Positions 6,025 through 35,186 of a stretch of 64,000 nucleotides of DNA are shown one piece after another; position 1 is the stretch's first letter; every line of letters starts with the position of its first letter. The notes beneath the pieces are model-generated. The model ran no database searches, had not been told where the DNA came from, and saw only the letters and a program-made list of their open reading frames with translations. Source of the DNA: Eukaryota sp. GEM-RC1 (lineage: Eukaryota); the NCBI GenBank assembly GCA_040285855.1, contig JAUFOQ010000002.1, positions 2,108,001-2,172,000 of the forward strand. Direction: 5' to 3'. The translations under genes and the position numbers were made by a program.

Positions 6025-7455
<1,431 letters not shown>

Positions 7456-7793: not shown

Positions 7794-8664
7794 CAGGGCC
7801 TACGGAAAAATATTTAAATAAAATATGGCAAACTTTTTCTTGAATAAATAAATATGAGTTATTCCCGATGAAGAAAATAAATAATTGCAATTATTTAAAT
7901 TATTTATTCAATGGAAACAAGGATACTACAACACTTCACAGACGTGATCTAACACAAACACTAGTACCTCTCCAGGTTTTGTGTGTTCTTATAACTTCCT
8001 AGATCGGTTTCAGTGTTAAGAAGGAATGATTTTAATGTAGACACAGTGTTCTATTCAACGAGAATGTGGTCAAACCAAAGCGATGTTATTCAACAGTTAC
8101 CGAACAACAGCAAACACATTTTCACATATTTGGATAGTTTCAGGGTTGGAAGAATACAATCAATACCACGGGATTAGCGGTTTTGTGTTACGATGAGTAG
8201 AACTTTTTAAACCGATTTGGTCTGGCTCTGTTTCGATAGGGGAATGAACTTTGTCAAGCCCAGAAAGGAAAAACGCCATGTATTTGCACAAGATACCATC
8301 AATATTTACAAAGGAGCTACCAAGACCACTACATCATCTCATATTCATGCTCAATTCTAAGAGATAGTTTAAAATTGAATCAAAAATAGTTCAGAAAGTG
8401 TACTCTTTTCTACTGCAATGAGTGCTGTATCTAGTCGCAGTACATGATAAAGACCGTACTGACGTTGCAGAATGTGACGAACTGCAACATGTTGCAGTTT
8501 TCACCTTTATAGGTTGTCCAGTGAGAGAGCAAAAAAATATAAAAATAATTTTTTATTTTCTGTTTTAATAAAATAAATAATGGAGAAACCCAACTTGAAA
8601 AAATAAATAAAATATCATTATTTACTGTAAATATTTAAATACAGATATTTTTCCGTAGGCCCTG
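7794..8664. mobile_element. hAT-like MITE, 871 bp, 8-bp TSD
   Basis: 20-bp TIR CAGGGCCTACGGAAAAATAT / ATATTTTTCCGTAGGCCCTG. TSD ATTTTGTG at 7786-7793 and 8665-8672. A diverged second copy starts at 63419. Confidence 0.92.
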
Positions 8665-9128
8665 ATTTTGTGAATTATCTTCTAATGCTTCGTTTTAAAC
8701 ACCCCTAATGATAGTCAAAATGTAGTTTTTACTAAAAACTCCATTGACCAACAGCGTAATAGACTGGTACCAAATTTAGCGATTAAGATGAACTGTTGTA
8801 AAATTGATAGCAAAATCAAAGTCTAAATAAATAAATGTCATTTTAGTTCTGACACCTCGCTCCTCTATCGGTTTTGCTAACCATGTTGTAAAATCATGTT
8901 CTTTTAAAAAGTACATACTACATGATATGATGTGAATTGAAACACCGCTACAACCAGAATGAAAGCTGTGATATAAATGTGGTCCAGTGGGCAATCAATC
9001 CCAATTGGTTGGTTGGAAACAATAGTTGAGAAATCAGTGAACGGAAATTGGTGGTTGATCAAGTCTATTTGCTCAAAAGACGGACTCAAATGGTTATATG
9101 AAATTAAATTTTGCTACATTGTTTCGTC

Positions 9129-12100
9129 ATGGATCCCACCTTGTCTCGAAATCTTAGAGATCGCGGGGTCAGTGATGACTTTATCTCCCTGCTGGAAAAA
9201 AATGCTGTGGTGACGTTCCAAGACTTAGCTGATGTGGTGGATGAAGACTGTTTACCGCCTGGAACATCAATGGACTTTGCTAGAGTCAAAAAACTGGTCC
9301 GAGCACGGGCTTCTGGTCACATTTCAGCTCCATCAAGAAACATTGTCGAAATCAACAACAATGAAAACGAAGCTCAATCTCCACCTTTTCGAAAGCCACG
9401 AAATGAACAAACACCAGTCCAGATACCTATCACCGTTCCAACACCAACACCTACAACAACCAAGAAGCCAATCTCGACTACACTCCAAGTAAAATCAGCT
9501 GGTGTACTTCCTCTCCGTTACACTGGCACTTTTCACGAATGTCTCCTCGCATGTGAACATCGAGAAGGATCTCTTTGTCTCAACTTCTTTGGAGGCGGTC
9601 TCAATTCTCTCGAGTCACCAAAAGATGGCGCTGTCCGTGAATTCCTAGAAGAATGTTCACTAGATCGTAATCATGCTCTTTCAACCTATCTCCAATCTGC
9701 AGAGATGAAACGAACACATCTTCCTCATGGAAAGTATGAGATGTTTGTCCTGGATATATCAACTGTACGCAATGACTATGCAAAACTCTTTTCCAGTTTG
9801 AATTCTGCCTTCACTCCTAATTCTGAGGTTAAAGGTGTACATTGGGTTACTTTGGATGATCTTCTTACGGCCTCTGGATCTGTTGGATATCCTTTTTCTT
9901 CATTTATTGTCAATTCACGTCCAATCCTCCATACTTTTCTTTCTAAACTACTTCTTGATCTACCTGTCAACGACCTCAAAGAGGATAAAATCTTGCCCAA
10001 ACACTTTCAACAGTTATTAACTGAACAACGTACTGAACTGGGCAAGTCTTTAAAGAAGAAATCATTACTTGATTGGTTTCCAAACTTTAAAGAATGGAGA
10101 TTGAAGAAGTTTGATCTCTTCTTGCCAAAAGATGAGGATCTTTCCCCATTCACTGTTGTAACTAAGAACGATGCACCGTTTGCACCTTTATTACAACAGC
10201 TGTCTCTACCCCAGCAAACTTCTCAACTTATCAGCACAATTAGAAAAGTAAATGTACCAGCTAGAAAATCTGCTTTTGACCAACTCTGTAGCAAATCAAA
10301 TCAAAGTTCTATTATTAAAGTATTCCATGGTACTCCTGAATCCTGGAGAGCTACTGCTATCGCTTTGAATGGTTTCGACTTGAAAATTAAGCTAGTCGGT
10401 AGAGCTTTTGGTGATGGAGTCTATTGTACAACTGATTCCAATCAAGCTTTATCTTACTCAAAGAGTCGCGGTTCGTTGTTGAGATGTGATGCAATGCTTG
10501 AAGCCAATTCTAAGAATGTCACTCCCCAAAGTAGACCTCCTGTATACGTGTTTCCTCAACCTCATCACGTGTTACCTGTATTGTTACTGGACTTTACTCC
10601 TGACAACTCAGCATTGTCAAAGAAGACGTTGACTGCCAAGCCAAAGCAGGATAAGATAATTGAAGCTAAAAGAAAACAGATGGCCAAGGAAGAGAAGGTT
10701 GTTGAAAAGGAATTGGAAAAACGATATGGTTCCATGGTTAAAAATTTTAAAAGTAGGATTGATCATCTTGCGAATTTGTTCTCTAGGACTCCTGATGAAA
10801 GTGCTAAACTCTACAAACTCTTAAAACAAGAATCACGATATTTCGAATCAAAATTGCCCATCTACTATCACCGATCTCAAATTGTTGACGCTTTACATAA
10901 CAATAACCTCCTAATTGTTGAGTGTGATACTGGTAGTGGGAAGAGCACAATGATTTGTCAATACGTGCATGATTACTATCAAGAGCTCTCAATTGGTAAA
11001 GGTGATTCTGACAAACGAAAGATCGCTATTCTCCAACCTCGCCGTGATAACGCTATTCAGCTAGCTTCCACCGTAGCTCAGTCTAGACACGGAGTTTGTG
11101 GTGATGAAGTGGGATATTCCATTGGACTAGGGTCTCAATGTACAACTGATAATACCAAGATTGAGTATTTGACACATGGGAAATTCCAACAAATGTCTGT
11201 CAATGCGGATAATGTTTTGAGGAATTTCAAATGTGTTATTGTCGATGAAGCTCATTTCAGAAGTATTCAAATTGATTTTGTGTTGAGTTTGTTGAAGCTA
11301 GTAATTGACAAAGCCAGAAATCAAAATATTTCTGATTTTAAAGTTATCATTACCACTGCAACGTTTGATAAGCAATTTCTCAATCTTTTAAATAATTTCT
11401 ATTCATCTGTTGCACAAGTTGAAATTCTCAAATTCAACATCCCTTCCTATCCCGTTCTTGTTCATAACATTGACGTCTTTGGCGATAATTACGACCAGGC
11501 CTTGGCCCATCTTTCCTTTGATTATTTCTCTAACGCCATAATCAATGGAGCTATCGACATGACAGTTAAGTTGCTTCAGTCTACCACTGACGGTGCAATC
11601 CTTGTGTTTTTACCCTCCAAATCTTCAATTGACAAAGCCTTATCTGTCTTCAAGTCAAAGTTTATGTCACATCATCAAGGATCTAACTCATTGACCTTCA
11701 CCGACAATCACTTCTCTTTCCTTGTTGATACTAAGAGTAAAGCTCAACCTCAAGTAAGAGTTGGGATATACGCTTTCCATGGAACCCTAACTAAAGCTGA
11801 AAGAACTCGAGCATTAGAAGCAGCTGAAGATCGTTGTGTTTACTTCAGTACAGACTTGGCAGAGACTGGCCTTACTATTAGAGATGTAAGATATGTAATT
11901 GATAGCGGATTTACTCAGAACGTAAGGTGGAATTCCAAGTCAAACATGGAAGAAATGACTCGGGAGTTAGTATCGAAGTCCAGTGCTATTCAAAGGAAAG
12001 GCAGAGCGGGGAGGACTAAGTCTGGGATTTGTATCAGACTGTATCCTGAATCTGTCTTTGAAAAAATGAAAGATGGACATGAACCAGCGATCAAAACAGG

Positions 12101-14257
12101 GCACGTTTTGAAATCAGTTCTGTCGTTTTTACATCTACAATCAACTGTCGCTGATTTTGAACTGATTGATCCCTTCCATGCACAGGTTTACCAAAATTCT
12201 GTTGATTTGTTGCAAAAGTAGAAGCGATTGTTGTCAACAACAATCGAGTTAAGATCACTGCCAATGGAAAAATCATTCTTCAATTGGGAGTATCTTTTGA
12301 AAATTCGTTGTTTTTAATTAATTCAATCAGAAATAACTGCTTAGAATCAGCTACAAAGATTGTTGCCTTGATGGTGTCTAATAGCGGAGCTTTGCTATCT
12401 CAGTTGGATAGTTCTACAAAACCCAAATTTTTAAATATGAGAGGCGACCACTCCACATTATTAAATATTTTCAACACTTATTTGACAAAGAGCTCAAGTG
12501 ACAGAAATCGCTGGTGTCGTGATATCGGATTGGACCCTTCTATACTAGACGATGCACGTGTCGCCTTTGATCATTTGACTGATACTCTTAGTCGTTTAGG
12601 TTACCCGGTGCAGGATAAAATTGATACCACGAAAGGTGATATCCATGATCATATCACGTGGACTTTGTGTTCCACATTTTTTAATAATTTAGGAGTTTTC
12701 AAGGAAGCTGGAAATGTCTCAAAGCAGTTCGTAATGTTTGATGAATCTGACCTTGCTTCTGTTGAGCAAGTTGATCCCAATCGAAATGATTCTGTCACGT
12801 TGGCTCTCAGTCACTCATCACTTCAATTCTGGAAGGATGAAGAGCTCTCGCCTAATGCTAATTACATTGTTTTCTCCTCGTTGATGTCCAATGTCACCCA
12901 TGATCCTGAAACTAGAGAGAAAACCTTTAAGAATTCTATCAATTTTGTTTCTTTCTGTACCACTGAGGACTTGGTCAGGAGTAGTCCTCAATGGAGAGCG
13001 GCAACCCTGGAAAAACAACTACAGAAGTTTTCTCGTGTCCGTTTTGACATTCCAATCACTCCAGATCAACAACGACTTCTTCTTTCAAATAGAGGTGAAC
13101 ATGTTAAGATACTAAAACAACAAATCAAGCGTGCTGATATCAGAATCACAAAGTCTGCCACTGGGCAAAATCAAGTCTCAGTTTCTTGTCCTTCAGGAGT
13201 CAAACATCACGTGGAGCGCCGTGTTGGAGAGTATTTGGACTCGCAAAAACCAGAAGTGATTGTCTTTAAGAACTTAGAAGGGGTTGACTTTGGTAAATTT
13301 ATTGGAAAGAAACGTTCAGCTGCTAATGATTTGGAGGCAAAGCTTGACAAAACACTGGAATCTATGGTATCTAAACCTTCAAAGGTCAAACTTGATATCA
13401 TTTCTAATCAAAATGAGCTCAGAGTCACAATCCCCAACATCCCTCCCCAGTTCACTTCAGTAATTGTTGGTTTGGTGCAGTCGGCGCTTGCTTCTTGTGT
13501 TACTGGAACTACTACCGTAGATCTATCTAATATTTCTTCCTCTGGATCTTTCTCTCAACATTTAAATCAAAATCCAAGACTGCTGAAATTAGTTTCGTCT
13601 GTTGTTCCTCGACCAAATGACAATAACAGAAACAATTGGGTTCTTCTCGTTGCTCACGTTGCTATTTGGGAAATTGGGTTGTCCTTATATGGTGGCTTCG
13701 TACGTGACTACGTCATCAGAAATCAACCAGCCAATGACGTGGACTGTTTAGTACCTCCTTCTTTAATGGGAAAAGTTCCATCAATGTTTAAACAGGCTCT
13801 CTCTAAGTACAATATTTCTTGTGGTTCACCCAGAACTAAAGGAAACGCTCATTGTATTGATGCGACTCTTCCTGATGGCAGTAATCTTGAAATTGATCTT
13901 ACACCATCAGATATGAAGATTCAAAAGCCCTACGTTGATGCTGATATTAATAACCTCATGGTTGACAAAACAGGATTGTTGCAGAAGATTAAAGGAGCTG
14001 GAGGTAGTCTTTGTAATCTTGCTGTATCAATCCAACATTGTCAAAACAAAGAGTTTGTGTTTTTCTATTCCTGTCAGGTGGACCCGAAAATGTGTGAAAG
14101 ACGGCTTAAAAAGATGTTGGGTAAGGGTTTTACTTGTTTATCACCTTTGCCTAGCTCAATGACACGGAAATTGACCAATTTCAATCAGTTGTTGAAACCA
14201 GACAAACAGTTTGATGTTAAATTTGACAATCTTCCACCGCATTTACAACTCCCTTAA
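9129..14257 (+). CDS. ~1700-aa multidomain protein: SAM-like + NUDIX + PARP-like ART + DEAH-box RNA helicase (HA2/OB) + two KH-like + Pol-beta/CCA-type nucleotidyltransferase; one -1 indel at ~12219
   Basis: Nudix box GGLNSLESPKDGAVREFLEECSL (~9594-9660). PARP motifs FHGT, GRAFGDGVY and VYVF..HVLP (~10310-10595). Helicase motifs DTGSGKST, DEAH, TAT, STDLAETGLTI and QRKGRAGR. Adding one base at ~12219 gives a continuous HA2-like LLQKLEAIVVNNNRVKITANGKIILQLG. KH-like segments LLSNRGEHVKILKQ and FIGKKR. NTase motif YGGFVRD..ANDVD at ~13690. Confidence 0.88.
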
Positions 14258-15587: not shown

Positions 15588-17256
15588 ATGATCGCACGTC
15601 GCTATAGAACACTTAATCTTCACCATCCTTTAAGGAACGATCTTGATAGCAGTTGTTCTTCCGTAAATAAGGCTCCAGCCTTGTCCCGTATTCCTAAAGC
15701 CCTGGAATCTGTCATTGATCCTCAAGTGTTTGTTCCTAGCACACTCATCTTACTTCAGATCTCGCCGCCGTCTATCGGGATCTTCCAGGTGCCCTCCTGT
15801 TAAGAAAACCAACCAATCTGACTCTTCGCCACACCCTTCCCCACGATCTAATCTCTCCTTCTCTAAAACCAAGGCAATCTCCCCTGTTCAAGGCCGCTTC
15901 GGCGTTTCCACACAGAACTCGTCTCAAAAACAAAATATCAGCACTTCCTCAAAGACCGAATTCCTGAATCTTTCCCATTGGATGTGGCGTGAGGTAGGGG
16001 GAGAGTGGAAACCATATAGCACTCTGATTTCAGACAGAATTGAACTGAAATGGTGTGACTTTGGCAAAAGAACATTGGAGCCCAATTTTACCACCACTTT
16101 GACTCGATTAAATGACAATCAAGAACAAAACTATTCTATTAATATCCTAACAATGAAACAGAAGAACCTCAAGACACTCTTCACACGTTCAATCAAGAGA
16201 GACAAAATTGATGTTGAAGTTCGTGGTAAAGGTAAGTGGCAGTTCAGTACCTCTTTGGGATGGGATACGTTCGACGACAGCTGTCAAGATCATTTGGAAC
16301 AATCATTTATCAACTACTGCACATCATCTGGTCCGTCTATTTGTTGGCTTACAATTTCAAAGTCGACTTACAAGATTGATCTTGCCCGTGGTATTCGATG
16401 TAATGTAGACACTTTGTCTGTACGTAGGCTACGAAGATTGTACAATGATTTATCCACAACAAAGGTCGCTGGCAAATCAGTAAACAGTGTTGTACTTCCA
16501 TCCAATTCTTCGCTGTCACTTCTAGCCGTGAGTGAAGCTAGATTTCCAAGCAGCTCTAAGTCTAAAACTACTTCAACCAATTTGGGCGGTCACAACACTC
16601 GCTTGAACCAGTTGCTTTCACCCACGACACCATTATTTACATCAAAGTCAAGAGATCAAGTGCAAGCAGTTCTTTGTCATATTCTTCTTTGGAAATGTAG
16701 ATGTACTATCTACGGTGGCTATGTAAGAGATTTCGTTATACGAGGCACACCAGCAAATGATATTGACGTTGTAGCACCGTCATCAGAACTTGGACCAGTA
16801 ATCAAGAAGTTCATATCAGAAACAGGCAAATCTGGACTGTTCATAAGTAAAGAACGCATAACAGTGATAGCCTATGTTGTCCAAAAGCTGACCATCACTG
16901 TTTCTGATTTTGATTTTGAAGTGGACTTCACCGCTCCTGGTGCTTCCCGTAAAGCTCAAGGAGCTGCCCCACCCTACGTTGAAGCTGATGTTTCAAATCT
17001 CCAACTTTCAGTCGATAAAAAGCTACATCTTAAGGAACCACTTGCTGACCCTCATGTAGACTTTAATGTTATTATAGATCACTGTCTTAGAAAACAGTTT
17101 GTGTTCTACTATGATCTAACAAAGTACCCAAACCTTTGCTACAGATTGAAAAGGAGGGTGCAGCGTGGATGGACGTGTTTGACGGCGATTCCCAAGCGTC
17201 ATCATCATGTGTTCCACAAACAGAATCATTTGTATCGACCTGTGAAAGCTCGTTAA
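15588..17256 (+). CDS. Tandem WWE-WWE + CCA/poly(A)-polymerase-like nucleotidyltransferase, ~545 aa; exons 15588-15727 and 15759-17256 (start codon tentative)
   Basis: WWE1 WMWREVGGEWKPYSTLISDRIE..YSINILTMKQKNLKTLFTRSIKR. WWE2 WQFSTSLGWDTFDDSCQDHLE..YKIDLARGIRCNVDTLSVRRLRR. NTase YGGYVRD..ANDID. A 31-nt intron at 15728-15758 (GTTTGT...CTTACTTCAG) joins the 15570 and 15715 ORFs in frame. Confidence 0.85.
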
Positions 17257-18163: not shown

Positions 18164-20396
18164 TCAGGATGACAGTGATGCTCTTATAGAACTCTTTCGA
18201 TCAAGAAATGACTGTATTTCACTCGCAGTTGTTATCCTCTTTTTCCATTTAAAGTTCCTTTCTGTTCTTGGTACATCATTTGCAGTCGTAAAAGATCTCT
18301 TTTGCCTCTCCCATGCCTCCAGAACATGTCACAGACAGCATTAATGGGGTTCCAGTCACAAAGTTTGTCAAAACAATGGATTGCAGTGAATAAACGATCG
18401 TTTCGTCTGTTTGCATTAAGAACTTCGATACACTTTCCTACTAAATGATGATGAAGAAGTTTAATTAGGGGAGGTGGAAGTGGAAGCTTGGGAATGACAG
18501 TCCCACTGAGAGAACTATCAATAAGGTTAGAATAATCATTAGTCAATCCAATCAAAATAGATTGATTGAAAGAGGATTCTGAAGCAGGTTCTGATAAGTT
18601 AGGTAAACACGCAAACTCTAACAATGAAGACAACAACTTGTTATCAAATGAATGACCAATTCTTTGTTCTAAAACAGAAAGTAATTCGGAAATAGTGACA
18701 GTTTCCCTACTAGAACTTATAATCCAGATTTCCGAAAGCAGGAGAAATAGACGGTCATTATACAAAGCCAAATGACGTGGTGCATTGTCAATGTCAAATG
18801 AGATAAACAGATTCATCATATTAGAAACTAAACAACTCAATAATGTACTTAGGTTATAAGTTTCATAGTAAGGAACTGTGGAGTCGTAATACTTGTCTCT
18901 GCCAGCTTCACCACATGAATAACCACTTAAAGGGAAAGTGAAAGATATTGCCATGAGAACAACATCAACAAATCGTACTTTTGGAAAGGTTTCACGATAT
19001 CCTTCCAAAAACAAGCGTCGTTGATTCAAGTAACGAATGACAAGAAACAACAAAAGACGGTATTCTCAACCTCACATACTTCTTCAAACAAATGAATCCA
19101 AGATGAATGGATATCTGGAGTAGACCATTCATTACCATAAGAGTGGTTACTGAAACTTTCAATTATGGATAAGAGCATTTCAACAGAAGATCTTGATCCT
19201 TCTAGTAGCAACTGGCGATGTTCAGGGGCAAGAACATTATCAAGCGAGTCTAGGAATTTTTCAGATATAGGAACACTCCCTTGACAACCACCAAGACTGT
19301 GATTACTTCTAAGAAATTGAATAGCAGGGGTTGCATACTTGAGGATGACACTGTAGTGGCGAGGAACATGTAAGGAATCAAAATACTCCAAGTCTAGTTC
19401 CAAGTCAGGCTCTTCAAACTTGTCCAAAGGCTGAACTTTCTCATACTGAATCCTTGCAACTGATGAAGAATCACTATAGGTAGTAGGAAAAACAAGATCT
19501 GTGGATATTTTGTAGTTATTCAGAGTGGAGAAAACAACAGTTGCCGCATGCGGATTATTGGCAAGAAATACAGTCCATAAATTACAATTGTCATCAGAAT
19601 TGAAAAAGTTCAACACTTCTTCATACTTTTGGACAGTATTTGAAGTAGATGCCAACCTGTAATTTTAAAAAGCCGGCACTTTGATTCATTAATTGCAAAC
19701 AAAGCGACCATCTTTTCAAAAGGAAGAAAACGATCTTGATGAAAAAGAAACATTTGTCCCGTTTTACCATCATACAATTGATCATAAAACTCTTTCAATC
19801 CAAAATCTCCTCTAAAGAAAGCAACTTTACACCTTTGATGGAAAAACAAGTGAACTTTGGAAGAAAACGCATAATAGGAATCATTCTGACGAACTTCTTC
19901 AGCAATGTGGTGAGTTAAACTACCACTTGGTATGAATTTAACCTTGTTTCCGTGTTCATCATTAGGATTGTTCACATCAAGTGCATTCCATAGAAGAAGA
20001 ATGTCTTGATTGAAAGGTGTTGGAAGTTTCTGTGGTTGGTTAACAATCTGAGCTGGTGTATATTGACGCTTAGAATGTGTTTCCGTCACCTTGTGGGGGG
20101 AAGAAACGGGAGCGTCTGAAATAGAAGATGAAATATATGTTGTGTTCGTTAAACTTCAAGAAGAAGTTGCGGAACAATCTGTTAACAGCGACTGCAGAGT
20201 AACCTGCTGAGTAATCAGGAACCAGTTGTTCGATGAGATAGGATCGGAATTCATAAGTGTCAACGACGAGGTACAGAGGTTGAGTTTGGTTAGAACCTAT
20301 AACACGTTCCTCTAATGCATGCCTGACGTTATGATGAGAACTATCGAGAAGAAAAGGAATCCATTCTTTGGAAAGAATCACAAGAGGAGACAACAT
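18164..20396 (-). CDS. Array gene copy 1, uncharacterised ~740-aa protein, possibly degenerate PIN (FAM120/Asteroid-like); several indels; distinct C-terminus
   Basis: Four consecutive ORF pieces are collinear with copies 2-5, and the breaks lie in homopolymers. Confidence 0.7.
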
Positions 20397-21563
20397 GAGG
20401 TAGTTCAACAGTATTAACTTGACGAAAAGTCGGAGGAGTCTTGAGAAAGGAAAAATTGGGATTTTACTGAAAACAATTTAGAATTCAACCTCCAGACAAA
20501 TTGGGATTTTAGATGACCGGCGTGTTGTCTTTGAAACCCGTTGACTGATTGATATATTTTAGGAATTGTTTACTTATAATGTATAGATGAAACATTGTAA
20601 ATTCGGTTTAACGATTGCGTTCTCGTTGCAGAAATTTCAACATTTATAGACAATGATTCTGTAGTACATAGAAACGCTATAACATACAACTGAGTCACGA
20701 AGTTGTGACGAAATTCAATATTTATATATGATGGTATTGGTCATATACAGCGCCTATCAGCGATAGTTTATTCAAACTTGGCATTAATAAAAATCTATCA
20801 AATTTGTTCTGTTTTCAGGGTGGAAATAACTGTGGTTTCTTGTGATAACAACATGCAGACCTTAAAACTGGATTTTGATGAAGACAAACTCGAAGTCCAT
20901 TCATTATGGTTAAAGATGATTGGTTTAGTGGAATTGAAATTGAAAAATACGGTTATATCGCTGAACACAAACAATTTGAGTTATCATTAAGACAATAATA
21001 CTCATGTAAATTGGTTTACTTGATGACTCCAAAAATAAATACATAAGACACTAAATGATTTCTAATGTAATAAGTTGGGACTATTGATTGAACTGAGCTA
21101 ATGAAACTACGGACTGGGATTTGACCGTTCAAGCTGAAACAAACAGAGGTGAGCCCAGGTGTAACACTAATCATTTTAGGACGAAACGACAAATACACAA
21201 CTTAGTGACCGAATCTAGAACTCAGATAAAACTTCTCTCACAAACGGCAAATACCCACTACTAAAGACTATCAGATTCAAAGATGTTTACGGCATTGACT
21301 TTGTCAGAAGAAAATCCTCTTGTAAAACGGAAGACTATCACTTCAAAAGAGTACAAGAAAACACATGACTGATCTGTTTTTATGAAAATAAACAACAACA
21401 AACGACTCCCCTCTAAACTCAAGTTAGAAATGGAAGTAGCAGAAGTTGGTTATTTAATAAATTATGGATCGTCAACATTACATGTTTTTCATGTATATAG
21501 CTAAAGCTCACATGTTTAGTAACTTAATATGAATTTGAAATTGTACCCATTTGCTGTATTGAT

Positions 21564-22168
21564 CAGGCTTCACAAAAGTAGTAAAGTGCTAAAGTGACTT
21601 TATTTTACTTTACTTTAAAGTTTTGGAAAGGTAAAGTAACAGACCTCAAACTTGTTTAGTTTGCCCTCTGAGCACTGCAAATGACTCTTTTATACCAGTA
21701 TAACATGTTCTATCATAGGAACTCAACAAAAACGCAAAACAAAAAACGATGTAAAATTGTTTCTAACAAAAACTTATTCAACCAAGATCCATTATTCAAA
21801 CGTCAGGTCACTTCAGCTCACTTCAATAGATCAATCAGTATCTGACAGTTCGAGATTGTCCCCTTTAAAAACAGAAACCAGTTCAATTCCGATACACTAT
21901 TCGTTATGTCTCTTCAGTTTTGGATAACTCTCGACCCATTACCTTCTGGTATCCTTTGTTCGGAGTTGAGTGAAGTCCTGTGTTAAAGGGAAGCGGAAAC
22001 TGAATATCTAAACTGAAGAGAGAAAGTTGTGAAAAGAGGATTGAGATCAGGTCAAACTTTATTGACCTTAAAGTAACTTTTTAGCTGAAGTAAAAGTAAA
22101 GCTTAAAGTAAAGTAAATAACTTTACTTTACTTTAATTTTGAATTTTGGACTACTTTAGTGAAGCCTG
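21564..22168. mobile_element. hAT-like MITE, 605 bp, 8-bp TSD (copy 1)
   Basis: TIR CAGGCTTCAC.AAAGTAGT / ACTACTTTAGTGAAGCCTG. TSD GTATTGAT on both sides. AAAGT/ACTTT subterminal repeats. Confidence 0.9.
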
Positions 22169-22220
22169 GTATTGATCCAATGAAACAGTTTTAATAGAAT
22201 TAATAAGTTCAACTTCAGGA

Positions 22221-24554
22221 CTACAACGATACTTTACGAAAACTCTTTTCAACATTAACAACATTAGCTGTAATAAATAGTTTAACAAATTTGCAGGTCA
22301 AACAGCTGATCGAAGATGCATACTCATCATCCAGGCTTAGGACAATTTTTTTTTATCAAGAAATGACTGTATTTCACTCGCTGTTGTTGTCCTCCTATTT
22401 CCATTTAAAGTTCCTTTCTGTTCTTGGTACATCATTTGCAGTCGTAAAAGATCTCTTTTGCCTCTCCCATGCCTCCAGAACATGTCACAGACAGCATTAA
22501 TGGGGTTCCAGTCACAAAGTTTGTCAAAACAATGGATTGCAGTGAATAAACGATCGTTTCGTCTGTTTGCATTAAGAACTTCGATACACTTTCCTACTAA
22601 ATGATGATGAAGAAGTTTAATTAGGGGAGGTGGAAGTGGAAGCTTGGGAATGACAGTCCCACTGAGAGAACTATCAATAAGGTTAGAATAATCATTAGTC
22701 AATCCAATCAAAATAGATTGATTGAAAGAGGATTCTGAAGCAGGTTCTGATAAGTTAGGTAAACACGCAAACTCTAACAATGAAGACAACAACTTGTTAT
22801 CAAATGAATGACCAATTCTTTGTTCTAAAACAGAAAGTAATTCGGAAATAGTGACAGTTTCCCTACTAGAACTTATAATCCAGATTTCCGAAAGCAGGAG
22901 AAATAGACGGTCATTATACAAAGCCAAATGACGTGGTGCATTGTCAATGTCAAATGAGATAAACAGATTCATCATATTAGAAACTAAACAACTCAATAAT
23001 GTACTTAGGTTATAAGTTTCATAGTAAGGAACTGTGGAGTCGTAATACTTGTCTCTGCCAGCTTCACCACATGAATAACCACTTAAAGGGAAAGTGAAAG
23101 ATATTGCCATGAGAACAACATCAACAAATCGTACTTTTGGAAAGGTTTCACGATATCCTTCCAAAAACAAGCGTCGTTGATTCAAGTAACGAATGACAAG
23201 AAACAACAAAAAGACGGTATTCTCAACCTCACATACTTCTTCAAACAAATGAATCCAAGATGAATGGATATCTGGAGTAGACCATTCATTACCATAAGGG
23301 TGGTTACTGAAACTTTCAATTATGGATAAGAGCATTTCAACAGAAGATCTTGATCCTTCTAGTAGCAACTGGCGATGTTCAGGGGCAAGAACATTATCAA
23401 GCGAGTCTAGGAATTTTTCAGATATAGGAACACTCCCTTGACAACCACCAAGACTGTGATTACTTCTAAGAAATTGAATAGCAGGGGTTGCATACTTGAG
23501 GATGACACTGTAGTGGCGAGGAACATGTAAGGAATCAAAATACTCCAAGTCTAGTTCCAAGTCAGGCTCTTCAAACTTGTCCAAAGGCTGAACTTTCTCA
23601 TACTGAATCCTTGCAACTGATGAAGAATCACTATAGGTAGTAGGAAAAACAAGATCTGTGGATATTTTGTAGTTATTCAGAGTGGAGAAAACAACAGTTG
23701 CCGCATGCGGATTATTGGCAAGAAATACAGTCCATAAATTACAATTGTCATCAGAATTGAAAAGTTCAACACTTCTTCATACTTTTGGACAGTATTTGAA
23801 GTAGATGCCAACCTGTAATTTTAAAAAAAAGCCGGCACTTTGATTCATTAATTGCAAACAAAGCGACCATCTTTTCAAAAGGAAGAAAACGATCTTGATG
23901 AAAAAGAAACATTTGTCCCGTTTTACCATCATACAATTGATCATAAAACTCTTTCAATCCAAAATCTCCTCTAAAGAAAGCAACTTTACACCTTTGATGG
24001 AAAAACAAGTGAACTTTGGAAGAAAACGCATAATAGGAATCATTCTGACGAACTTCTTCAGCAATGTGGTGAGTTAAACTACCACTTGGTATGAATTTAA
24101 CCTTGTTTCCGTGTTCATCATTAGGATTGTTCACATCAAGTGCATTCCATAGAAGAAGAATGTCTTGATTGAAAGGTGTTGGAAGTTTCTGTGGTTGGTT
24201 AACAATCTGAGCTGGTGTATATTGACGCTTAGAATGTGTTTCCGTCACCTTGTGGGGGAAGAAACGGGAGCGTCTGAAATAGAAGATGAAATATATGTTG
24301 TGTTCGTTAAACTTCAAGAAGAAGTTGCGGAACAATCTGTTAACAGCGACTGCAGAGTAACCTGCTGAGTAATCAGGAACCAGTTGTTCGATGAGATAGG
24401 ATCGGAATTCATAAGTGTCAACGACGAGGTACAGAGGTTGAGTTTGGTTAGAACCTATAACACGTTCCTCTAATGCATGCCTGACGTTATGATGAGAACT
24501 ATCGAGAAGAAAAGGAATCCATTCTTTGGAAAGAATCACAAGAGGAGACAACAT
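22221..24554 (-). CDS. Array gene copy 2 (~775 aa after correcting indels)
   Basis: ORFs 23766-24566 and 22337-23584, plus a 3' tail homologous to copy 4. Confidence 0.72.
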
Positions 24555-25721
24555 GAGGTAGTTCAACAGTATTAACTTGACGAAAAGTCGGAGGAGTCTT
24601 GAGAAAGGAAAAATTGGGATTTTACTGAAAACAATTTAGAATTCAACCTCCAGACAAATTGGGATTTTAGATGACCGGCGTGTTGTCTTTGAAACCCGTT
24701 GACTGATTGATATATTTTAGGAATTGTTTACTTATAATGTATAGATGAAACATTGTAAATTCGGTTTAACGATTGCGTTCTCGTTGCAGAAATTTCAACA
24801 TTTATAGACAATGATTCTGTAGTACATAGAAACGCTATAACATACAACTGAGTCACGAAGTTGTGACGAAATTCAATATTTATATATGATGGTATTGGTC
24901 ATATACAGCGCCTATCAGCGATAGTTTATTCAAACTTGGCATTAATAAAAATCTATCAAATTTGTTCTGTTTTCAGGGTGGAAATAACTGTGGTTTCTTG
25001 TGATAACAACATGCAGACCTTAAAACTGGATTTTGATGAAGACAAACTCGAAGTCCATTCATTATGGTTAAAGATGATTGGTTTAGTGGAATTGAAATTG
25101 AAAAATACGGTTATATCGCTGAACACAAACAATTTGAGTTATCATTAAGACAATAATACTCATGTAAATTGGTTTACTTGATGACTCCAAAAATAAATAC
25201 ATAAGACACTAAATGATTTCTAATGTAATAAGTTGGGACTATTGATTGAACTGAGCTAATGAAACTACGGACTGGGATTTGACCGTTCAAGCTGAAACAA
25301 ACAGAGGTGAGCCCAGGTGTAACACTAATCATTTTAGGACGAAACGACAAATACACAACTTAGTGACCGAATCTAGAACTCAGATAAAACTTCTCTCACA
25401 AACGGCAAATACCCACTACTAAAGACTATCAGATTCAAAGATGTTTACGGCATTGACTTTGTCAGAAGAAAATCCTCTTGTAAAACGGAAGACTATCACT
25501 TCAAAAGAGTACAAGAAAACACATGACTGATCTGTTTTTATGAAAATAAACAACAACAAACGACTCCCCTCTAAACTCAAGTTAGAAATGGAAGTAGCAG
25601 AAGTTGGTTATTTAATAAATTATGGATCGTCAACATTACATGTTTTTCATGTATATAGCTAAAGCTCACATGTTTAGTAACTTAATATGAATTTGAAATT
25701 GTACCCATTTGCTGTATTGAT

Positions 25722-26324
25722 CAGGCTTCACAAAAGTAGTAAAGTGCTAAAGTGACTTTATTTTACTTTACTTTAAAGTTTTGGAAAGGTAAAGTAACAG
25801 ACCTCAAACTTGTTTAGTTTGCCCTCTGAGCACTGCAAATGACTCTTTTATACCAGTATAACATGTTCTATCATAGGAACTCAACAAAAAACGCAAAACA
25901 AAAACGATGTAAAATTGTTTCTAACAAAAACTTATTCAACCAAGATCCATTATTCAAACGTCAGGTCACTTCAGCTCACTTCAATAGATCAATCAGTATC
26001 TGACAGTTCGAGATTGTCCCCTTTAAAAACAGAAACCAGTTCAATTCCGATACACTATTCGTTATGTCTCTTCAGTTTTGGATAACTCTCGACCCATTAC
26101 CTTCTGGTATCCTTTGTTCGGAGTTGAGTGAAGTCCTGTGTTAAAGGGAAGCGGAAACTGAATATCTAAACTGAAGAGAGAAAGTTGTGAAAAGAGGATT
26201 GAGATCAGGTCAAACTTTATTGACCTTAAAGTAACTTTTTAGCTGAAGTAGTAGAAGCTTAAAGTAAAGTAAATAACTTTACTTTACTTTAATTTTGAAT
26301 TTTGGACTACTTTAGTGAAGCCTG
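25722..26324. mobile_element. hAT-like MITE (copy 2, duplicated with the array unit)
   Basis: Same TIRs and same GTATTGAT TSD as 21564-22168. Confidence 0.9.
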
Positions 26325-26376
26325 GTATTGATCCAATGAAACAGTTTTAATAGAATTAATAAGTTCAACTTCAGGA

Positions 26377-28709
26377 CTACAACGATACTTTACGAAAACT
26401 CTTTTCAACATTAACAACATTAGCTGTAATAAATAGTTTAACAAATTTGCAGGTCAAACAGCTGATCGAAGATGCATACTCATCATCCAGGCTTAGGACA
26501 ATTTTTTTTTATCAAGAAATGACTGTATTTCACTCGCTGTTGTTGTCCTCCTATTTCCATTTAAAGTTCCTTTCTGTTCTTGGTACATCATTTGCAGTCG
26601 TAAAGATCTCTTTGCCTCTCCCATGCCTCCAGAACATGTCACAGACAGCATTAATGGGGTTCCAGTCACAAAGTTTGTCAAAACAATGGATTGCAGTGAA
26701 TAAACGATCGTTTCGTCTGTTTGCATTAAGAACTTCGATACACTTTCCTACTAAATGATGATGAAGAAGTTTAATTAGGGGAGGTGGAAGTGGAAGCTTG
26801 GGAATGACAGTCCCACTGAGAGAACTATCAATAAGGTTAGAATAATCATTAGTCAATCCAATCAAAATAGATTGATTGAAAGAGGATTCTGAAGCAGGTT
26901 CTGATAAGTTAGGTAAACACGCAAACTCTAACAATGAAGACAACAACTTGTTATCAAATGAATGACCAATTCTTTGTTCTAAAACAGAAAGTAATTCGGA
27001 AATAGTGACAGTTTCCCTACTAGAACTTATAATCCAGATTTCCGAAAGCAGGAGAAATAGACGGTCATTATACAAAGCCAAATGACGTGGTGCATTGTCA
27101 ATGTCAAATGAGATAAACAGATTCATCATATTAGAAACTAAACAACTCAATAATGTACTTAGGTTATAAGTTTCATAGTAAGGAACTGTGGAGTCGTAAT
27201 ACTTGTCTCTGCCAGCTTCACCACATGAATAACCACTTAAAGGGAAAGTGAAAGATATTGCCATGAGAACAACATCAACAAATCGTACTTTTGGAAAGGT
27301 TTCACGATATCCTTCCAAAAACAAGCGTCGTTGATTCAAGTAACGAATGACAAGAAACAACAAAAAGACGGTATTCTCAACCTCACATACTTCTTCAAAC
27401 AAATGAATCCAAGATGAATGGATATCTGGAGTAGACCATTCATTACCATAAGGGTGGTTACTGAAACTTTCAATTATGGATAAGAGCATTTCAACAGAAG
27501 ATCTTGATCCTTCTAGTAGCAACTGGCGATGTTCAGGGGCAAGAACATTATCAAGCGAGTCTAGGAATTTTTCAGATATAGGAACACTCCCTTGACAACC
27601 ACCAAGACTGTGATTACTTCTAAGAAATTGAATAGCAGGGGTTGCATACTTGAGGATGACACTGTAGTGGCGAGGAACATGTAAGGAATCAAAATACTCC
27701 AAGTCTAGTTCCAAGTCAGGCTCTTCAAACTTGTCCAAAGGCTGAACTTTCTCATACTGAATCCTTGCAACTGATGAAGAATCACTATAGGTAGTAGGAA
27801 AAACAAGATCTGTGGATATTTTGTAGTTATTCAGAGTGGAGAAAACAACAGTTGCCGCATGCGGATTATTGGCAAGAAATACAGTCCATAAATTACAATT
27901 GTCATCAGAATTGAAAAAGTTCAACACTTCTTCATACTTTTGGACAGTATTTGAAGTAGATGCCAACCTGTAAATTTTAAAAAAAAGCCGGCACTTTGAT
28001 TCATTAATTGCAAACAAAGCGACCATCTTTTCAAAAGGAAGAAAACGATCTTGATGAAAAGAAACATTTGTCCCGTTTTACCATCATACAATTGATCATA
28101 AAACTCTTTCAATCCAAAATCTCCTCTAAAGAAAGCAACTTTACACCTTTGATGGAAAAACAAGTGAACTTTGGAAGAAAACGCATAATAGGAATCATTC
28201 TGACGAACTTCTTCAGCAATGTGGTGAGTTAAACTACCACTTGGTATGAATTTAACCTTGTTTCCGTGTTCATCATTAGGATTGTTCACATCAAGTGCAT
28301 TCCATAGAAGAAGAATGTCTTGATTGAAAGGTGTTGGAAGTTTCTGTGGTTGGTTAACAATCTGAGCTGGTGTATATTGACGCTTAGAATGTGTTTCCGT
28401 CACCTTGTGAGGGAAGAAACGGGAGCGTCTGAAATAGAAGATGAAATATATGTTGTGTTCGTTAAACTTCAAGAAGAAGTTGCGGAACAATCTGTTAACA
28501 GCGACTGCAGAGTAACCTGCTGAGTAATCAGGAACCAGTTGTTCGATGAGATAGGATCGGAATTCATAAGTGTCAACGACGAGGTACAGAGGTTGAGTTT
28601 GGTTAGAACCTATAACACGTTCCTCTAATGCATGCCTGACGTTATGATGAGAACTATCGAGAAGAAAAGGAATCCATTCTTTGGAAAGAATCACAAGAGG
28701 AGACAACAT
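26377..28709 (-). CDS. Array gene copy 3
   Basis: ORFs 27921-28721, 26551-28026 and 26493-26726 are collinear with the other copies. Confidence 0.72.
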
Positions 28710-29878
28710 GAGGTAGTTCAACAGTATTAACTTGACGAAAAGTCGGAGGAGTCTTGAGAAAGGAAAAATTGGGATTTTACTGAAAACAATTTAGAATTCA
28801 ACCTCCAGACAAATTGGGATTTTAGATGACCGGCATGTTGTCTTTGAAACCCGTTGACTGATTGATATATTTTAGGAATTGTTTACTTATAATGTATAGA
28901 TGAAACATTGTAAATTCGGTTTAACGATTGCGTTCTCGTTGCAGAAATTTCAACATTTATAGACAATGATTCTGAAGTACATAGAAACGCTATAACATAC
29001 AACTGAGTCACGAAGTTGTGACGAAATTCAATATTTATATATGATGGTATTGGTCATATACAGCGCCTATCAGCGATAGTTTATTCAAACTTGGCATTAA
29101 TAAAAATCTATCAAATTTGTTCTGTTTTCAGGGTGGAAATAACTGTGGTTTCTTGTGATAACAACATGCAGACCTTAAAACTGGATTTTGATGAAGACAA
29201 ACTCGAAGTCCATTCATTATGGTTAAAGATGATTGGTTTAGTGGAATTGAAATTGAAAAATACGGTTATATCGCTGAACACAAACAATTTGAGTTATCAT
29301 TAAGACAATAATACTCATGTAAATTGGTTTACTTGATGACTCCAAAAATAAATACATAAGACACTAAATGATTTGTAATGTAATAAGTTGGGACTATTGA
29401 TTGAACTGAGCTAATGAAACTACGGACTGGGATTTGACCGTTCAAGCTGAAACAAACAGAGGTGAGCCCAGGTGTAACACTAATCATTTTAGGACGAAAC
29501 GACAAATACACAACATAGTGACCGAATCTAGAACTCAGATAAAACTTCTCTCACAAACGGCAAATACCCACTACTAAAGACTATCAGATTCAAAGATGTT
29601 TACGGCATTGACTTTGTCAGAAGAAAATCCTCTTGTAAAACGGAAGACTATCACTTCAAAAAGAGTACAAGAAAATACATGACTGATCTGTTTTTATGAA
29701 AATAAACAACAACAAACGACTCCCCCTCTAAACTCAAGTTAGAAATGGAAGTAGCAGAAGTTGGTTATTTAATAAATTATGGATCGTCAACATTACATGT
29801 TTTTCATGTATATAGCTAAAGCTCACATGTTTAGTAACTTAATATGAATTTGAAATTGTACCGATTTGCTGTATTGAT

Positions 29879-30481
29879 CAGGCTTCACAAAAGTAGTAAA
29901 GTGCTAAAGTGACTTTATTTTACTTTACTTTAAAGTTTTGAAAAGGTAAAGTAACAGACCTCAAACTTGTTTAGTTTGCCCTCTGAGCACTGCAAATGAC
30001 TCTTTTATACCAGTATAACATGTTCTATCATAGGAACTCAACAAAAACGCAAAACAAAAAACGATGTAAAATTGTTTCTAACAAAAACTTATTCAACCAA
30101 GATCCATTATTCAAACGTCAGGTCACTTCAGCTCACTTCAATAGATCAATCAGTATCTGACAGTTCGAGATTGTCCCCTTTAAAAACAGAAACCAGTTCA
30201 ATTCCGATACACTATTCGTTATGTCTCTTCAGTTTTGGATAACTCTCGACCCATTACCTTCTGGTATCCTTTGTTCGGAGTTGAGTGAAGTCCTGTGTTA
30301 AAGGGAAGCGGAAACTGAATATCTAAACTGAAGAGAGAAAGTTGTGAAAAGAGGATTGAGATCAGGTCAAACTTTATTGACCTTAAAGTAACTTTTAGCT
30401 GAAGTAAAGTAAAGCTTAAAGTAAAGTAAATAACTTTACTTTACTTTAATTTTGAATTTTGGACTACTTTAGTGAAGCCTG
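29879..30481. mobile_element. hAT-like MITE (copy 3, duplicated with the array unit)
   Basis: Same TIRs and GTATTGAT TSD. Confidence 0.9.
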
Positions 30482-30533
30482 GTATTGATCCAATGAAACA
30501 GTTTTAATAGAATTAATAAGTTCAACTTCAGGA

Positions 30534-32868
30534 CTACAACGATACTTTACGAAAACTCTTTTCAACATTAACAACATTAGCTGTAATGAATAGTTTAACA
30601 AATTTGCAGGTCAAACAGCCGATCGAAGATGCATACTCATCATCCAGGCTTAGGACAATTTTTTTATCAAGAAATGACTGTATTTCACTCGCTGTTGTTG
30701 TCCTCCTATTTCCATTTAAAGTTCCTTTCTGTTCTTGGTACATCATTTGCAGTCGTAAAAGATCTCTTTTGCCTCTCCCATGCCTCCAAAACATGTCACA
30801 GACAGCATTAATGGGGTTCCAGTCACAAAGTTTGTCAAAACAATGGATTGCAATAAACAATGGATATTTCCGTTCGTTTGCATTAAGAACTTCTATACAT
30901 TTTCCAATTAAATGATGGTGAAGTATTTTAATAAGGGGGAGGTGGAAGTGGAAGCTTGGGAATGATAGTCCCACTGAGAGAACTATCAATAAGGTTAGAG
31001 TAATCATTAGTCAATTCAATCAAAATAGATTGATTGAAAGTCGACTCAGAAGCAGGTTCTGATAAGTTAGGTAAACACGCAAACTCCAGTAATAAAGACA
31101 ACAACTTGTTATCAAATGAATGACCAATCCTTTGTTCTAAAACAAAAAGTAATTCGGAATCCTTATTATTTTCCTTACTAGTGCTTATAATCCAGATTTC
31201 TGAAAGCAGAAGAAATAGACGGTCATTATACAAAGCCAAATGACGTGGTGCATTGCCAATGTCAAATGAGATAAACAGGTTCATCATATAAGAAAATGAA
31301 CAACTCAAAAATGTACTTAAGTAATAAGTTGTATAAAAAGGAACTGTGGAATCGTAATACTTATCTCTGCCAGCTTCACCAAATGAATATCCACCTAAAG
31401 GAAAGGTGAAAGATATTGCCATGAGAACAACATCCACAAATCGTACTTTTGGAGACGTTTTACGATATCCTTCCAAAAACAATCGTCGTTGATTCAAGTA
31501 ACGAATGAGCAGAAACAACAAAAAGACGGTATTCTCAACCGCACATACTTCTTCAAACAACTGAATCCAAGATGAATGGATATCTGGAGTAGACCATTCA
31601 TTTCCATAAGGGTGGTTACTGAAACTTTCAATTATGGATAAGAGCATTTCAACAGGAGATCTTGATCCTTCTAGTAACAACTGGCGATGTTCAGGGGCAA
31701 GAACGTTATCAAGCGAGTCTAGGAATTTTTCAGAAATTTCAAAATTGTCTTGAGACCGACCAAGACTGTGGATAGTTCTAAGAAATTGAATAGCAGGGGC
31801 GGCATACTTGAGAATGACACTGTAGTGACGACGAGCACCTGGCAGATCGAAGAACCTCAAGTCTAGTTCCAAGTCAGGCTCTTCAAACTTGTCTAAAGGC
31901 TGAATTTTCTCATATTGAACCCTTGCAACTGAAGAAGAATCACTATAGGTAGTAGGAGCAATAAGTTCTGTTGATATTTTGTAGTTATTCAGAGTGGAGA
32001 AAACAATAGTTGCCGCATCCGGATTATTGACAAGAAATGCGGTCCATAATTTAAAATTGTCATCAGAATTGAAAAAGTTCAAAACATTTTCGAACTGTTG
32101 GACAGTATTTGAAGTAGATGTCAACTTGTAAATCTTAAAGAAAAGTCGACACTTTGATTCATTAATTGCAAACAAAGCAACCATCTTTTCAAAAGGAAGA
32201 AAACGATCTTGATGAAAAAGAAACAATTGTCCCGTGTTACCATCATACAACTGATCATAAAACTCTTTCAATCCAAAATCTCCTCTAAAGACAGCAACTT
32301 TACATCTTTGATGGAAAAACAAGTGAACTTTGGAAGAAAAGGCATAATAGGAATCATTCTGACGAACTTCTTCAGCAATGTGGTGAGTTAAACTACCACT
32401 TGGTATGAACTTAACCTTGTTTCCGTGTTCTTTTTTAGGATTGTTCACATCAAGTGCATTCCAAAGGAGAAGAATGTCTTGATTGAAAGGTGTTGGAAGT
32501 TTCTGTGGTTGGTTAACAATCTGAGCTGGTGTATATTGACGCTTAGAATGTGTTTCCGTCACCTTGTGGGGGATGAAAGGGGAGCGTCTGGAATAGAAGA
32601 TGAAATATATGTTGTGTTCGTTAAACTTCAAGAAGAAGTTGCGGAACAATCTGTTAACAGCAACTGCAGAGTAACCTGCTGAGTAATCAGGAACCAGTTG
32701 TTCGATGAGATAGGATCGGAATTCATAAGTGTCAACGACGAGGTACAGCGGTTGAGTTTGGTTAGAACCTATAACACGTTCCTCTAATGCATGCCTGACG
32801 TTAAGATGAGAACTATCGAGAAGAAAAGGGATCCATTCTTTGGAAAGAATCAGATCGGGAGAATCCAT
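30534..32868 (-). CDS. Array gene copy 4, diverged paralog (~777 aa, one indel at ~30935)
   Basis: A 646-aa ORF plus a 157-aa tail ORF. Many substitutions relative to copies 1-3. Confidence 0.8.
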
Positions 32869-34581: not shown

Positions 34582-34671
34582 CAGTGAACGCTAACACGTT
34601 TAAAAATCGAATCTAACACGTGTTAACACGCGTGTTACGTGTCAGGCCGTGTTACGTGTTAGCGTTCACTG
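34582..34671. mobile_element. 90-bp mini TIR element
   Basis: Perfect 18-bp inverted ends CAGTGAACGCTAACACGT / ACGTGTTAGCGTTCACTG and internal TAACACG repeats. Flanks are imperfectly duplicated (CAAAAAT / CATAAAAT). Confidence 0.7.
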
Positions 34672-35186
34672 CATAAAATGCGTCCTGTGTAAACTTAATT
34701 AAAAAATCTACAAAAATTCTAGATATACGTAATCCTTATATTGGTGATGCAGCATCATAATGAAAACTTCTTCTTCATAATTAAGTCATGAATATCACAC
34801 AAAGATACAAATAGCATATGATTGTTCAGGTTTATCCTTAGAAGGATAGAATATAATACTATATTCCGTATTACAAACCGACAGAAGCAACACATGAATC
34901 ACAAATATCACTCACAAAATCAGTCTTTTGTGATGTCTTTAACTTGAGAGTCCCCTAATCGCATAGTTGTAGCTGTTCCAGGATTAAACGAAGTGTCTAT
35001 TATTCTACCAACACAAGACTTGTTACATCCATTGATGAAAAAACCTATTTATGATTGATCAGTGTATGAAGATCGTTTCTTTTTTGAAAATACGTTTTCT
35101 GAAGAAATGTCAAAACTGATTCAATTTTAAAGTGGAAACGGTGTTCTTTGAACAAGGAGCAACAAGAATCTCCGCCATACAATAAA

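Follow-up and report, generated by a model that had tools for sequence, protein, structure and literature searches.

Gene organization at the locus

We analysed a stretch of 64,000 nucleotides from Eukaryota sp. GEM-RC1 (contig JAUFOQ010000002.1, positions 2,108,001 to 2,172,000; hereafter the window), in which positions 9129–14257 of the forward strand encode a predicted fusion protein combining a NUDIX hydrolase, a mono-ADP-ribosyltransferase (ART), a DEAH helicase and a nucleotidyltransferase (NTase). Its first open reading frame (ORF1, 9129–12221, 1030 aa) runs from an ATG at 9129 to a TAG at 12219–12221, and a second frame on the same strand (ORF2, 12206–14257, 683 aa) is open throughout. 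These positions agree with a first-pass annotation of the DNA, which had proposed one polypeptide interrupted by a one-base break near 12219. The encoded domain order is SAM-like–NUDIX–mono-ART–DEAH helicase–KH–KH–minimal class II NTase, with a low-complexity linker between the SAM-like start and the NUDIX domain and a long helix between the ART and RecA1. All four enzyme domains named by that annotation are supported, with their motifs at the places it gave; the two KH folds, the SAM-like start and a neighbouring WWE-WWE-NTase gene are absent from it. The features of the gene are as follows.

9129..14257, forward strand: whole gene, about 1709 codons in an intron-free model, from end-to-end alignment of both halves to the relative P0003
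9129..9314, forward strand: short helical domain at the N-terminus, resembling SAM by eye, conserved in P0002–P0004
9486..9914, forward strand: NUDIX hydrolase domain (PF00293, E 3.3e-6, 27.6 bits, cutoff 21.1), Nudix box at 9591–9662
10161..10616, forward strand: PARP-type ADP-ribosyltransferase (PF00644, E 6.7e-6), H400-Y432-V472
10851..12098, forward strand: DEAH RecA1 and RecA2, from PDB DEAH/RHA helicases (best E 8e-45) and residue alignment to Prp43
12099..13021, forward strand: C-terminal part of the helicase (winged helix, helical bundle, OB fold), with the break inside it, from predicted structure
12214..12221, forward strand: frame break, a run of four A (12214–12217), then G and TAG, short by one base
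13031..13495, forward strand: two type I KH folds, from predicted structure and the loops of relatives
13553..14257, forward strand: minimal class II NTase, head and short neck, with GGFVRD (13691–13708), DVD (13736–13744) and a third Asp (13895–13897, D564 of ORF2)

The two reading frames as one gene

The sequence at the break is CAAAAGTAG, and the position corresponds to the winged-helix part of HA2 in the C-terminal region of the helicase. Both halves align to the same full-length fusion, P0003 (1709 aa, Eukaryota sp. TZLM3-RCL), which was found with a NUDIX-ART query and with a KH-NTase query for longer proteins. ORF1 is 45% identical to its residues 10–1036 over 1041 columns, and ORF2 is 45% identical to residues 1033–1709 over 681 columns. 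A second full-length fusion, P0004 (1760 aa), comes from TZLM1-RC; both source names denote Skoliomonas-type metamonads, and the window probably derives from a related metamonad. In tblastn with relatives, the homology runs in frame 3 and then in frame 2. The two frames share K-V and stay exactly in register with the homologues, and the winged helix continues uninterrupted across the junction in all 26 homologues. It is these intact proteins, rather than a guessed correction, that bear out the single polypeptide.

The window bears the signature of uncorrected long-read errors, with abundant homopolymer indels. Three pairings of 4.15-kb tandem copies elsewhere in the window, which are not independent of one another, differ by 9, 12 and 12 indels, compared with 4, 10 and 14 substitutions. 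Single-base indels lie inside runs of at least four bases in 5 of 7, 9 of 11 and 9 of 11 cases, against a background of 7.8% of bases in such runs. Other genes are also broken, the RHD3 gene into three frames and one kinase gene into two. Given the intact homologues, the read-through in 26 of 26 and the indel-rich window, the TAG between ORF1 and ORF2 is most likely a one-base assembly error. The two frames are in all likelihood halves of one gene that is intact in the cell, and the aligned relatives show that the fusion is real at the family level. If the TAG were genuine, reflecting a recent pseudogene, a split allele or a programmed frameshift, it would concern the window gene and not the family. 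P0002 and P0171 are likewise short in their assemblies; P0002 ends before the NTase, and P0009, a candidate for the same gene, resembles its missing end. However, this is a single lesion across 5.1 kb with both sides equally conserved. It falls on a homopolymer in an indel-rich window and would cut a folded domain, relatives break at other places or nowhere, and a slippery heptamer (X XXY YYZ) was not seen at the site by eye. A genuine stop is very improbable on these grounds.

Two further explanations were rejected. Each of the 18 frame-restoring GT-AG intron candidates, the shortest of 53 nt, deletes part of a region that aligns without a gap of that kind, and readthrough of TAG under an alternative genetic code leaves the frame change uncorrected.

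Domain architectures and distribution of the family

With the NTase as query, phmmer returned 166 matches (clusters) from 1.84 billion representatives, of which matches 150 were listed; 84 longer matches were scanned with Pfam, profiles were built from the fetched set, and sources were looked up for 30 long matches. All four enzymes (NUDIX-ART-DEAH-NTase) occur together in 18 of the 150 listed matches. The window protein belongs to type A, with the order NUDIX-ART-DEAH-KH-KH-NTase, optionally preceded by a Macro domain, which was detected in 7 of the 150. Type A sources include Carpediemonas, Choanoeca, Aphanomyces stellatus and Chlorochromonas, as well as a Kipferlia entry that ends before the NTase, and thus span metamonads, a choanoflagellate, an oomycete and a chrysophyte. 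Type B (CCCH-DEAH-RING/IBR-ART-WWE-WWE-NTase) accounts for 8 of the 150, from Paulinella, Mallomonas, Pedospumella, Aphanomyces, Lagenidium, Carpediemonas and Chilomastix. The remaining long matches that were looked up are environmental. Since both types are present in Carpediemonas and in Aphanomyces, they may represent two old paralogues. In a FastTree phylogeny of 70 of the 121 NTase domains (NTase-only fragments excluded), rooted at the midpoint, types A and B are intermingled and the deep nodes are weakly supported; the tree fixes neither the order of events nor the donor.

An ART is present in 30 of the 32 listed matches that have both RecA domains. The NTase accompanies ADP-ribose domains (ART, WWE, Macro, PARG) even in proteins that have no helicase, namely PARG-WWE-NTase (P0088), kinase-ART-NTase (P0057) and WWE-WWE-NTase forms. 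Judged by these architectures, the NTase defines an unannotated clade tied to ADP-ribose domains. At the DNA level, no relative was confirmed in viral contigs (single protein query) or in metagenome contigs, and tblastn gave no match in the phage collection. No description of the four-enzyme protein was found in the literature searched by architecture, nor in a PARP survey (PMC4245714) or part of PMC9503650, and a prior mention elsewhere is possible.

N-terminal, NUDIX and ART domains

The N-terminal domain, tentatively SAM-like from its pattern, gave no Pfam match to a SAM domain. In the NUDIX domain, the signature GX5EX7REUXEEXGU is complete except for its last G, which reads S; the box described in the first-pass annotation as full is therefore present but departs from the consensus at this position. 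Across the family, the Arg of the box is kept in 20 of 20 sequences and each of the three Glu in 19 of 20. The closest ESM clusters to this domain are unnamed giant-virus Nudix proteins (score 0.95–0.96), and the match to NUDT5 is weak (E about 1). One type A member, P0012, has a degenerate Nudix box and keeps its ART and NTase motifs.

The ART scores 26.2 bits against the Pfam PARP model, just below the cutoff of 26.7, and the relative P0040 scores above it with 33.9. The H and Y residues align with those of tankyrase in a weak match (E 0.36), and both are invariant in the family (25 of 25 each). The polymerase Glu, whose position was located through the family alignment and the tankyrase motif, occurs in none of 33 aligned ARTs, 29 of which carry V, I or C there. 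The mono-ART assignment made in the first-pass annotation is supported by this pattern.

Helicase and KH domains

Pfam detects DEAD (44.2 bits) and Helicase_C (53.4 bits) in ORF1, and the motifs GSGKST, DEAH, TAT and QRKGRAGR are present, leaving the ATPase motifs intact. The TAT of motif III, singled out earlier, does occur in the window but is not a family trait, as 21 of 25 relatives have SAT. Three positions deviate from the DEAH pattern. The hook-turn RF is replaced by GL in the window (11124), and the Arg position is Gly in 25 of 25 type A proteins; motif Ib reads THG in the window and in 24 of 25 type A proteins; and the sensor Ser of motif V is Gly in the window (11868) and in 25 of 25 type A proteins, versus Ser in 8 of 8 type B proteins. 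The His hook-loop of DExH translocases is present in 15 of 25.

As reported in part of PMC5262380, the RF-to-GG substitution in Prp43 retains ATPase activity and RNA binding and lowers unwinding from 60 to 0.68 nM/min, and in most DExH helicases RF is missing and a His hook-loop takes its place. The available portion of PMC6486627 describes the motif V Ser side chain as dispensable, with Gly in NS3 and Ski2-like helicases. RF is also absent from most DExH members, so its loss leaves the place of the window helicase in the DEAH/RHA group intact. With the hook-turn Arg replaced, a motif V side chain that can be dispensed with and the His hook-loop present in 15 of 25, translocation is possible and duplex unwinding is doubtful.

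A model of ORF2, built from 4 sequences (mean predicted local distance difference test score, pLDDT, 66.7; NTase part poor), placed residues 1–272 close to the helicase-associated domain of DHX8 (3i4u; Z 19.1, root-mean-square deviation (rmsd) 3.4, 217 aligned), and Foldseek matched the model to Prp22 (E 4e-7). KH1 (ORF2 residues 276–349) aligns to an FBP KH domain (Z 8.4, rmsd 2.5, 72 aligned), with many further KH entries among the matches. KH2 shows KH topology in the model and a weak Pfam KH match, and its relatives carry GKxIGKxG-type loops.

The nucleotidyltransferase

The GG-VRD/DxD signature noted previously is confirmed as GGFVRD and DVD, and a third catalytic Asp can be added. Pfam gave only weak DUF5769 and PolyA_pol matches (E 0.2) on ORF2, and an NTase profile yielded only chance matches among PDB sequences. 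Refolded with 49 sequences, the domain reached a pLDDT of 95.4. Its best structural matches are class II CCA-, CC- and A-adding and poly(A) enzymes (Foldseek E 8e-6 for a CCA enzyme; Z 10.3, rmsd 3.6, 167 aligned), followed by TglT and ANT(2''); the Trf4 core gave Z 7.2 over 93 residues. Structure prediction, which had been named as a check on the domain calls, thus supports the helicase C-terminal domain and the class II NTase, with coverage restricted to ORF2.

The catalytic residues are well kept among 121 NTase domains of 165–300 aa (shorter fragments dropped): GG in 120 and 116, RD in 119 and 120, DxD in 117 and 118, and the third Asp in 111. Motif B, RRD in class II enzymes, is replaced by YVD in the window, and GVD and FVE are the commonest forms among the 121 domains. 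EDxxR is missing: no conserved E or D lies there, about 50 residues remain to the C-terminus, and the body and tail domains are absent. The roles of RRD and EDxxR in class II enzymes are described in parts of PMC7947759 and bioRxiv 2023.12.02.569716. Having its catalytic residues but neither RRD nor EDxxR, the NTase is probably active but is not a CCA enzyme, and its choice of base is unpredictable.

Viral relatives

Among ESM clusters, those of phage PolyA_pol/Gad2-like proteins lie closest to the NTase (0.95–0.96), with a Gad2 share of 25–61%; Gad2 (PF26128) is absent from the listed Pfam matches of the window proteins. In BFVD, the best fold matches of the NTase belong to mimiviruses and their relatives, and its motif was found in three viral contigs. 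On a 1.26-Mb giant-virus contig (L002, 3416–9671), five adjacent DUF5769 genes all match the NTase profile, which suggests that DUF5769 covers the C-terminal portion of a class II NTase of the minimal kind. Another giant-virus locus (L003, 4896–5789) encodes an NTase-RING fusion. On these comparisons, the viral link is one of shared domains and implies no direction of transfer.

Neighbouring genes and other features of the window

A second NTase gene lies 1.4 kb downstream of the fusion gene. Alpha-tubulin, IFT57, RHD3 and kinase genes identify the window as eukaryotic.

15667..17256, forward strand: WWE-WWE-NTase gene, paralogous through the same NTase and without a helicase (WWE E 5e-18; tblastn with relatives)
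6103–7455: alpha-tubulin, read from the sequence

The WWE-WWE-NTase gene matches P0056 over 498 of 498 residues, and its NTase is 45% identical to that of P0088 (PARG-WWE-NTase) over 216 aa; tblastn detected no PARG part upstream of it. Two inverted copies of a 585-bp element (8089–8668 and 63415–63998) are 89% identical, one of them just upstream of the fusion gene. The tandem array (18200–37400, reverse strand) consists of units of about 4.15 kb encoding a protein of 650–750 aa with no Pfam match in the one copy scanned, and its copies differ mainly by homopolymer indels. The RHD3/Sey1 GTPase gene spans three frames at 43374–45701 (forward strand), probably through an assembly error of the same kind. 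Two RING-kinase-coiled-coil genes (55107–57105, reverse strand, and 46625–48249, forward strand) are 77% alike over 659 bp, one in two frames and the other with a terminal ubiquitin domain, and a PIF1-like helicase fragment (PF05970, E 1e-19) lies at 53095–53616 on the reverse strand.

Proposed function and alternative explanations

The observations that bear on function are the architecture shared by the relatives, the conserved catalytic residues, the KH folds and the pairing of the NTase with ADP-ribose domains. From these, we tentatively propose, at a little short of an even chance, that the product is an RNA-triggered enzyme that writes and erases ADP-ribose marks and tails RNA as part of a surveillance system for RNA that is foreign or damaged. 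The DEAH ATPase and KH domains would grip single-stranded RNA, probably acting as a clamp or translocase more than as a duplex unwinder. The H-Y-V ART would then use NAD+ to place a single ADP-ribose on a phosphorylated RNA end, or on a bound protein, resulting in a translation block or a flag. The NUDIX domain, together with the macrodomain of many relatives, may trim or remove the mark, and the template-free class II NTase may add nucleotides to the free 3'-OH of the held RNA, leading to decay. Modification and reversal at RNA ends have known precedents: phosphorylated RNA ends are substrates of PARP10, PARP11, PARP15 and TRPT1, and the mark is taken off by macrodomains and NUDT16 (part of PMC6582358), while PARP14 combines KH, macro, WWE and ART domains in one chain as writer and eraser (part of PMC10499325). 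Defence against large DNA viruses would be the likeliest setting, yet it is the least supported step; the nearest viral look-alikes of both the NUDIX domain and the NTase are found in giant viruses.

Several observations weigh against this proposal. The NUDIX domain need not act on ADP-ribose, as giant-virus Nudix look-alikes include mRNA decappers, and the basic residues after GG that are common among relatives are lost in the clade of the window protein. The ART could equally modify proteins. Without RRD, neither ribonucleotide use nor an RNA acceptor is assured for the NTase, and the helicase-free WWE-NTase, PARG-WWE-NTase and kinase-ART-NTase forms point away from RNA as the sole acceptor. 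The KH GxxG loops are degenerate in the window protein and intact in KH2 of many relatives. Finally, a family that is conserved and present mostly in one or a few copies could serve housekeeping rather than defence.

If the NTase acts on the mark itself, the adenosine of mono-ADP-ribose would be treated as an RNA 3' end and extended into an ADP-ribose-oligonucleotide hybrid, read by WWE or Macro domains and released by the NUDIX domain. ART, WWE, Macro or NUDIX domains occur in 39 of the 46 matches of at least 900 aa (37 by the built profiles and 2 more by Pfam), and the pairing is kept without a helicase in P0088, P0057 and the neighbouring gene of the window. The ART lies on either side of the helicase with the NTase retained, and type B carries tandem WWE domains beside an ART unable to make polymer. 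We know of no class II NTase that extends ADP-ribose, some WWE-NTase entries may be type B fragments, and giant-virus NTase copies stand without ADP-ribose domains at the three loci seen. The 3'-OH of ADP-ribose is, however, a known acceptor of DELTEX ligases (part of PMC7615817). Extension of the mark appears unlikely. A broader scheme, to which we give a similarly low weight, would place the family in an undescribed ancient eukaryotic RNA defence. There, a helicase-bound mono-ART would cap RNA or protein, the NTase would make the hybrid as a mark or messenger, WWE and Macro domains would read it and the NUDIX domain would cut it, with the expanded DUF5769 copies of giant viruses forming part of the conflict.

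The first-pass annotation had pictured one chain that tails, unwinds and decaps or ADP-ribose-caps its target RNA; we consider it here in a TRAMP-like form, with 3' tailing, unwinding and 5' decapping in routine RNA turnover. The NTase, helicase and NUDIX domains do share one chain, the helicase, KH and NTase domains are contiguous in type A, the NTase fold is closest to CCA and poly(A) enzymes, and the ATPase motifs are intact, with the His hook-loop in a majority. Nudix relatives in giant viruses decap mRNA and may break down ADP-ribose (part of PMC9503650). However, the missing hook-turn Arg weakens the analogy, given that the equivalent Prp43 change nearly abolishes unwinding; the NTase is of class II and less similar to Trf4; and the invariant ART and the Macro, WWE and PARG partners are given no role in this form. 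A machine that tails, unwinds and decaps is thus possible but not the best supported, and we regard it as distinctly unlikely. Equally doubtful is protein-directed signalling, in which the helicase would serve only as an RNA sensor, the ART and NTase would modify proteins (ADP-ribosylation and NMPylation), and SAM or RBR domains would relay the signal. The RING/IBR of type B, the kinase-ART-NTase form, the rank of TglT and ANT(2'') directly after class II enzymes and the phage Gad2-like clusters (0.95) among the ESM neighbours are consistent with it, but the enzymes that the NTase fold matches best are RNA-acting. Gad2, predicted to be an NTase, blocks a defence complex, with no substrate stated in the available part of the report (bioRxiv 2023.05.01.538930), and makes up 25–61% of those clusters.

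RNA end repair would have the ART and NUDIX domains clean blocked phosphate ends, in the manner of Tpt1/KptA, and the NTase restore lost nucleotides, for instance on tRNAs cleaved in an infection. KptA ARTs, Macro domains and CCA-like NTases do cooperate in phage RNA repair (part of PMC7824862), but this ART is PARP-like and not KptA-like, Pfam scans of the 84 matches revealed no ligase or kinase domain for such repair, and the EDxxR template and tRNA-binding body are absent. Repair seems highly improbable; of all these readings, RNA-triggered marking and tailing is the best supported.

RNA ADP-ribosylation is known mostly from in vitro work on human PARPs. Here, a predicted writer, one or two predicted erasers, a putative RNA motor and a putative template-free polymerase are held in one chain across distant protist lineages, so that the fate of an ADP-ribosylated RNA end could become testable with one purified protein. 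The NTase comparison also gives giant-virus DUF5769 a fold and a catalytic motif, and the split of the fusion gene in the database is very likely an artefact.

Comparison with known systems

The window protein belongs to three superfamilies (DEAH/RHA, NUDIX and PARP-type ART) and stands apart from TRAMP, CCA enzymes proper and macro-PARPs. With DEAH/RHA helicases (Prp2, Prp16, Prp22, Prp43, DHX8, DHX35 and HrpA), it shares RecA1, RecA2, the winged helix, the helical bundle, the OB fold and motifs I, II and VI, but differs in the replaced hook-turn RF, the THG of motif Ib, the Gly of motif V and three extra enzyme domains. Plant DEAH11/12 proteins carry a DEAH helicase followed by KH-like domains and an RBR; the latter is absent from the window protein, and its type B relatives bear RING/IBR. 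To our knowledge, DEAH11/12 have no ART, NUDIX or NTase domain. The NTase resembles class II CCA-adding enzymes and bacterial poly(A) polymerase in the head fold, GG-x-VRD, DxD and the third Asp, but it comprises only about 215 residues, lacks RRD, EDxxR, body and tail, and is fused to ADP-ribose domains. By profile match it is of the same minimal type as giant-virus DUF5769 proteins, and by ESM similarity it resembles phage Gad2-like NTases; these, in contrast, stand alone or are fused to RING, F-box or BTB, with no helicase or ART seen.

TRAMP (Trf4/5-Air-Mtr4) likewise couples a template-free NTase with a superfamily 2 RNA helicase. It is, however, a three-protein complex of a class I terminal nucleotidyltransferase (TENT) and a Ski2-like helicase, without ART or NUDIX. 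The NTase motif of the window protein, GG-x-VRD, is of class II, and its helicase is not Ski2-like, as all 60 PDB entries shown are DEAH/RHA. PARP14 and PARP9-DTX3L share with it KH domains, a mono-ART and an ADP-ribose eraser (putative in the window protein) on one chain, and PARP14 acts on nucleic acid ends (part of PMC10499325). Unlike them, the window protein comes from a protist, has no RRM or WWE, and possesses a DEAH helicase, a NUDIX domain and an NTase. The macro-PARP order RRM-KH-Macro-WWE-ART does not apply either, since only KH and ART are present and Macro occurs in relatives only. By analogy, the protein may work like a PARP14-type RNA-binding writer and eraser to which a motor and a polymerase have been added.

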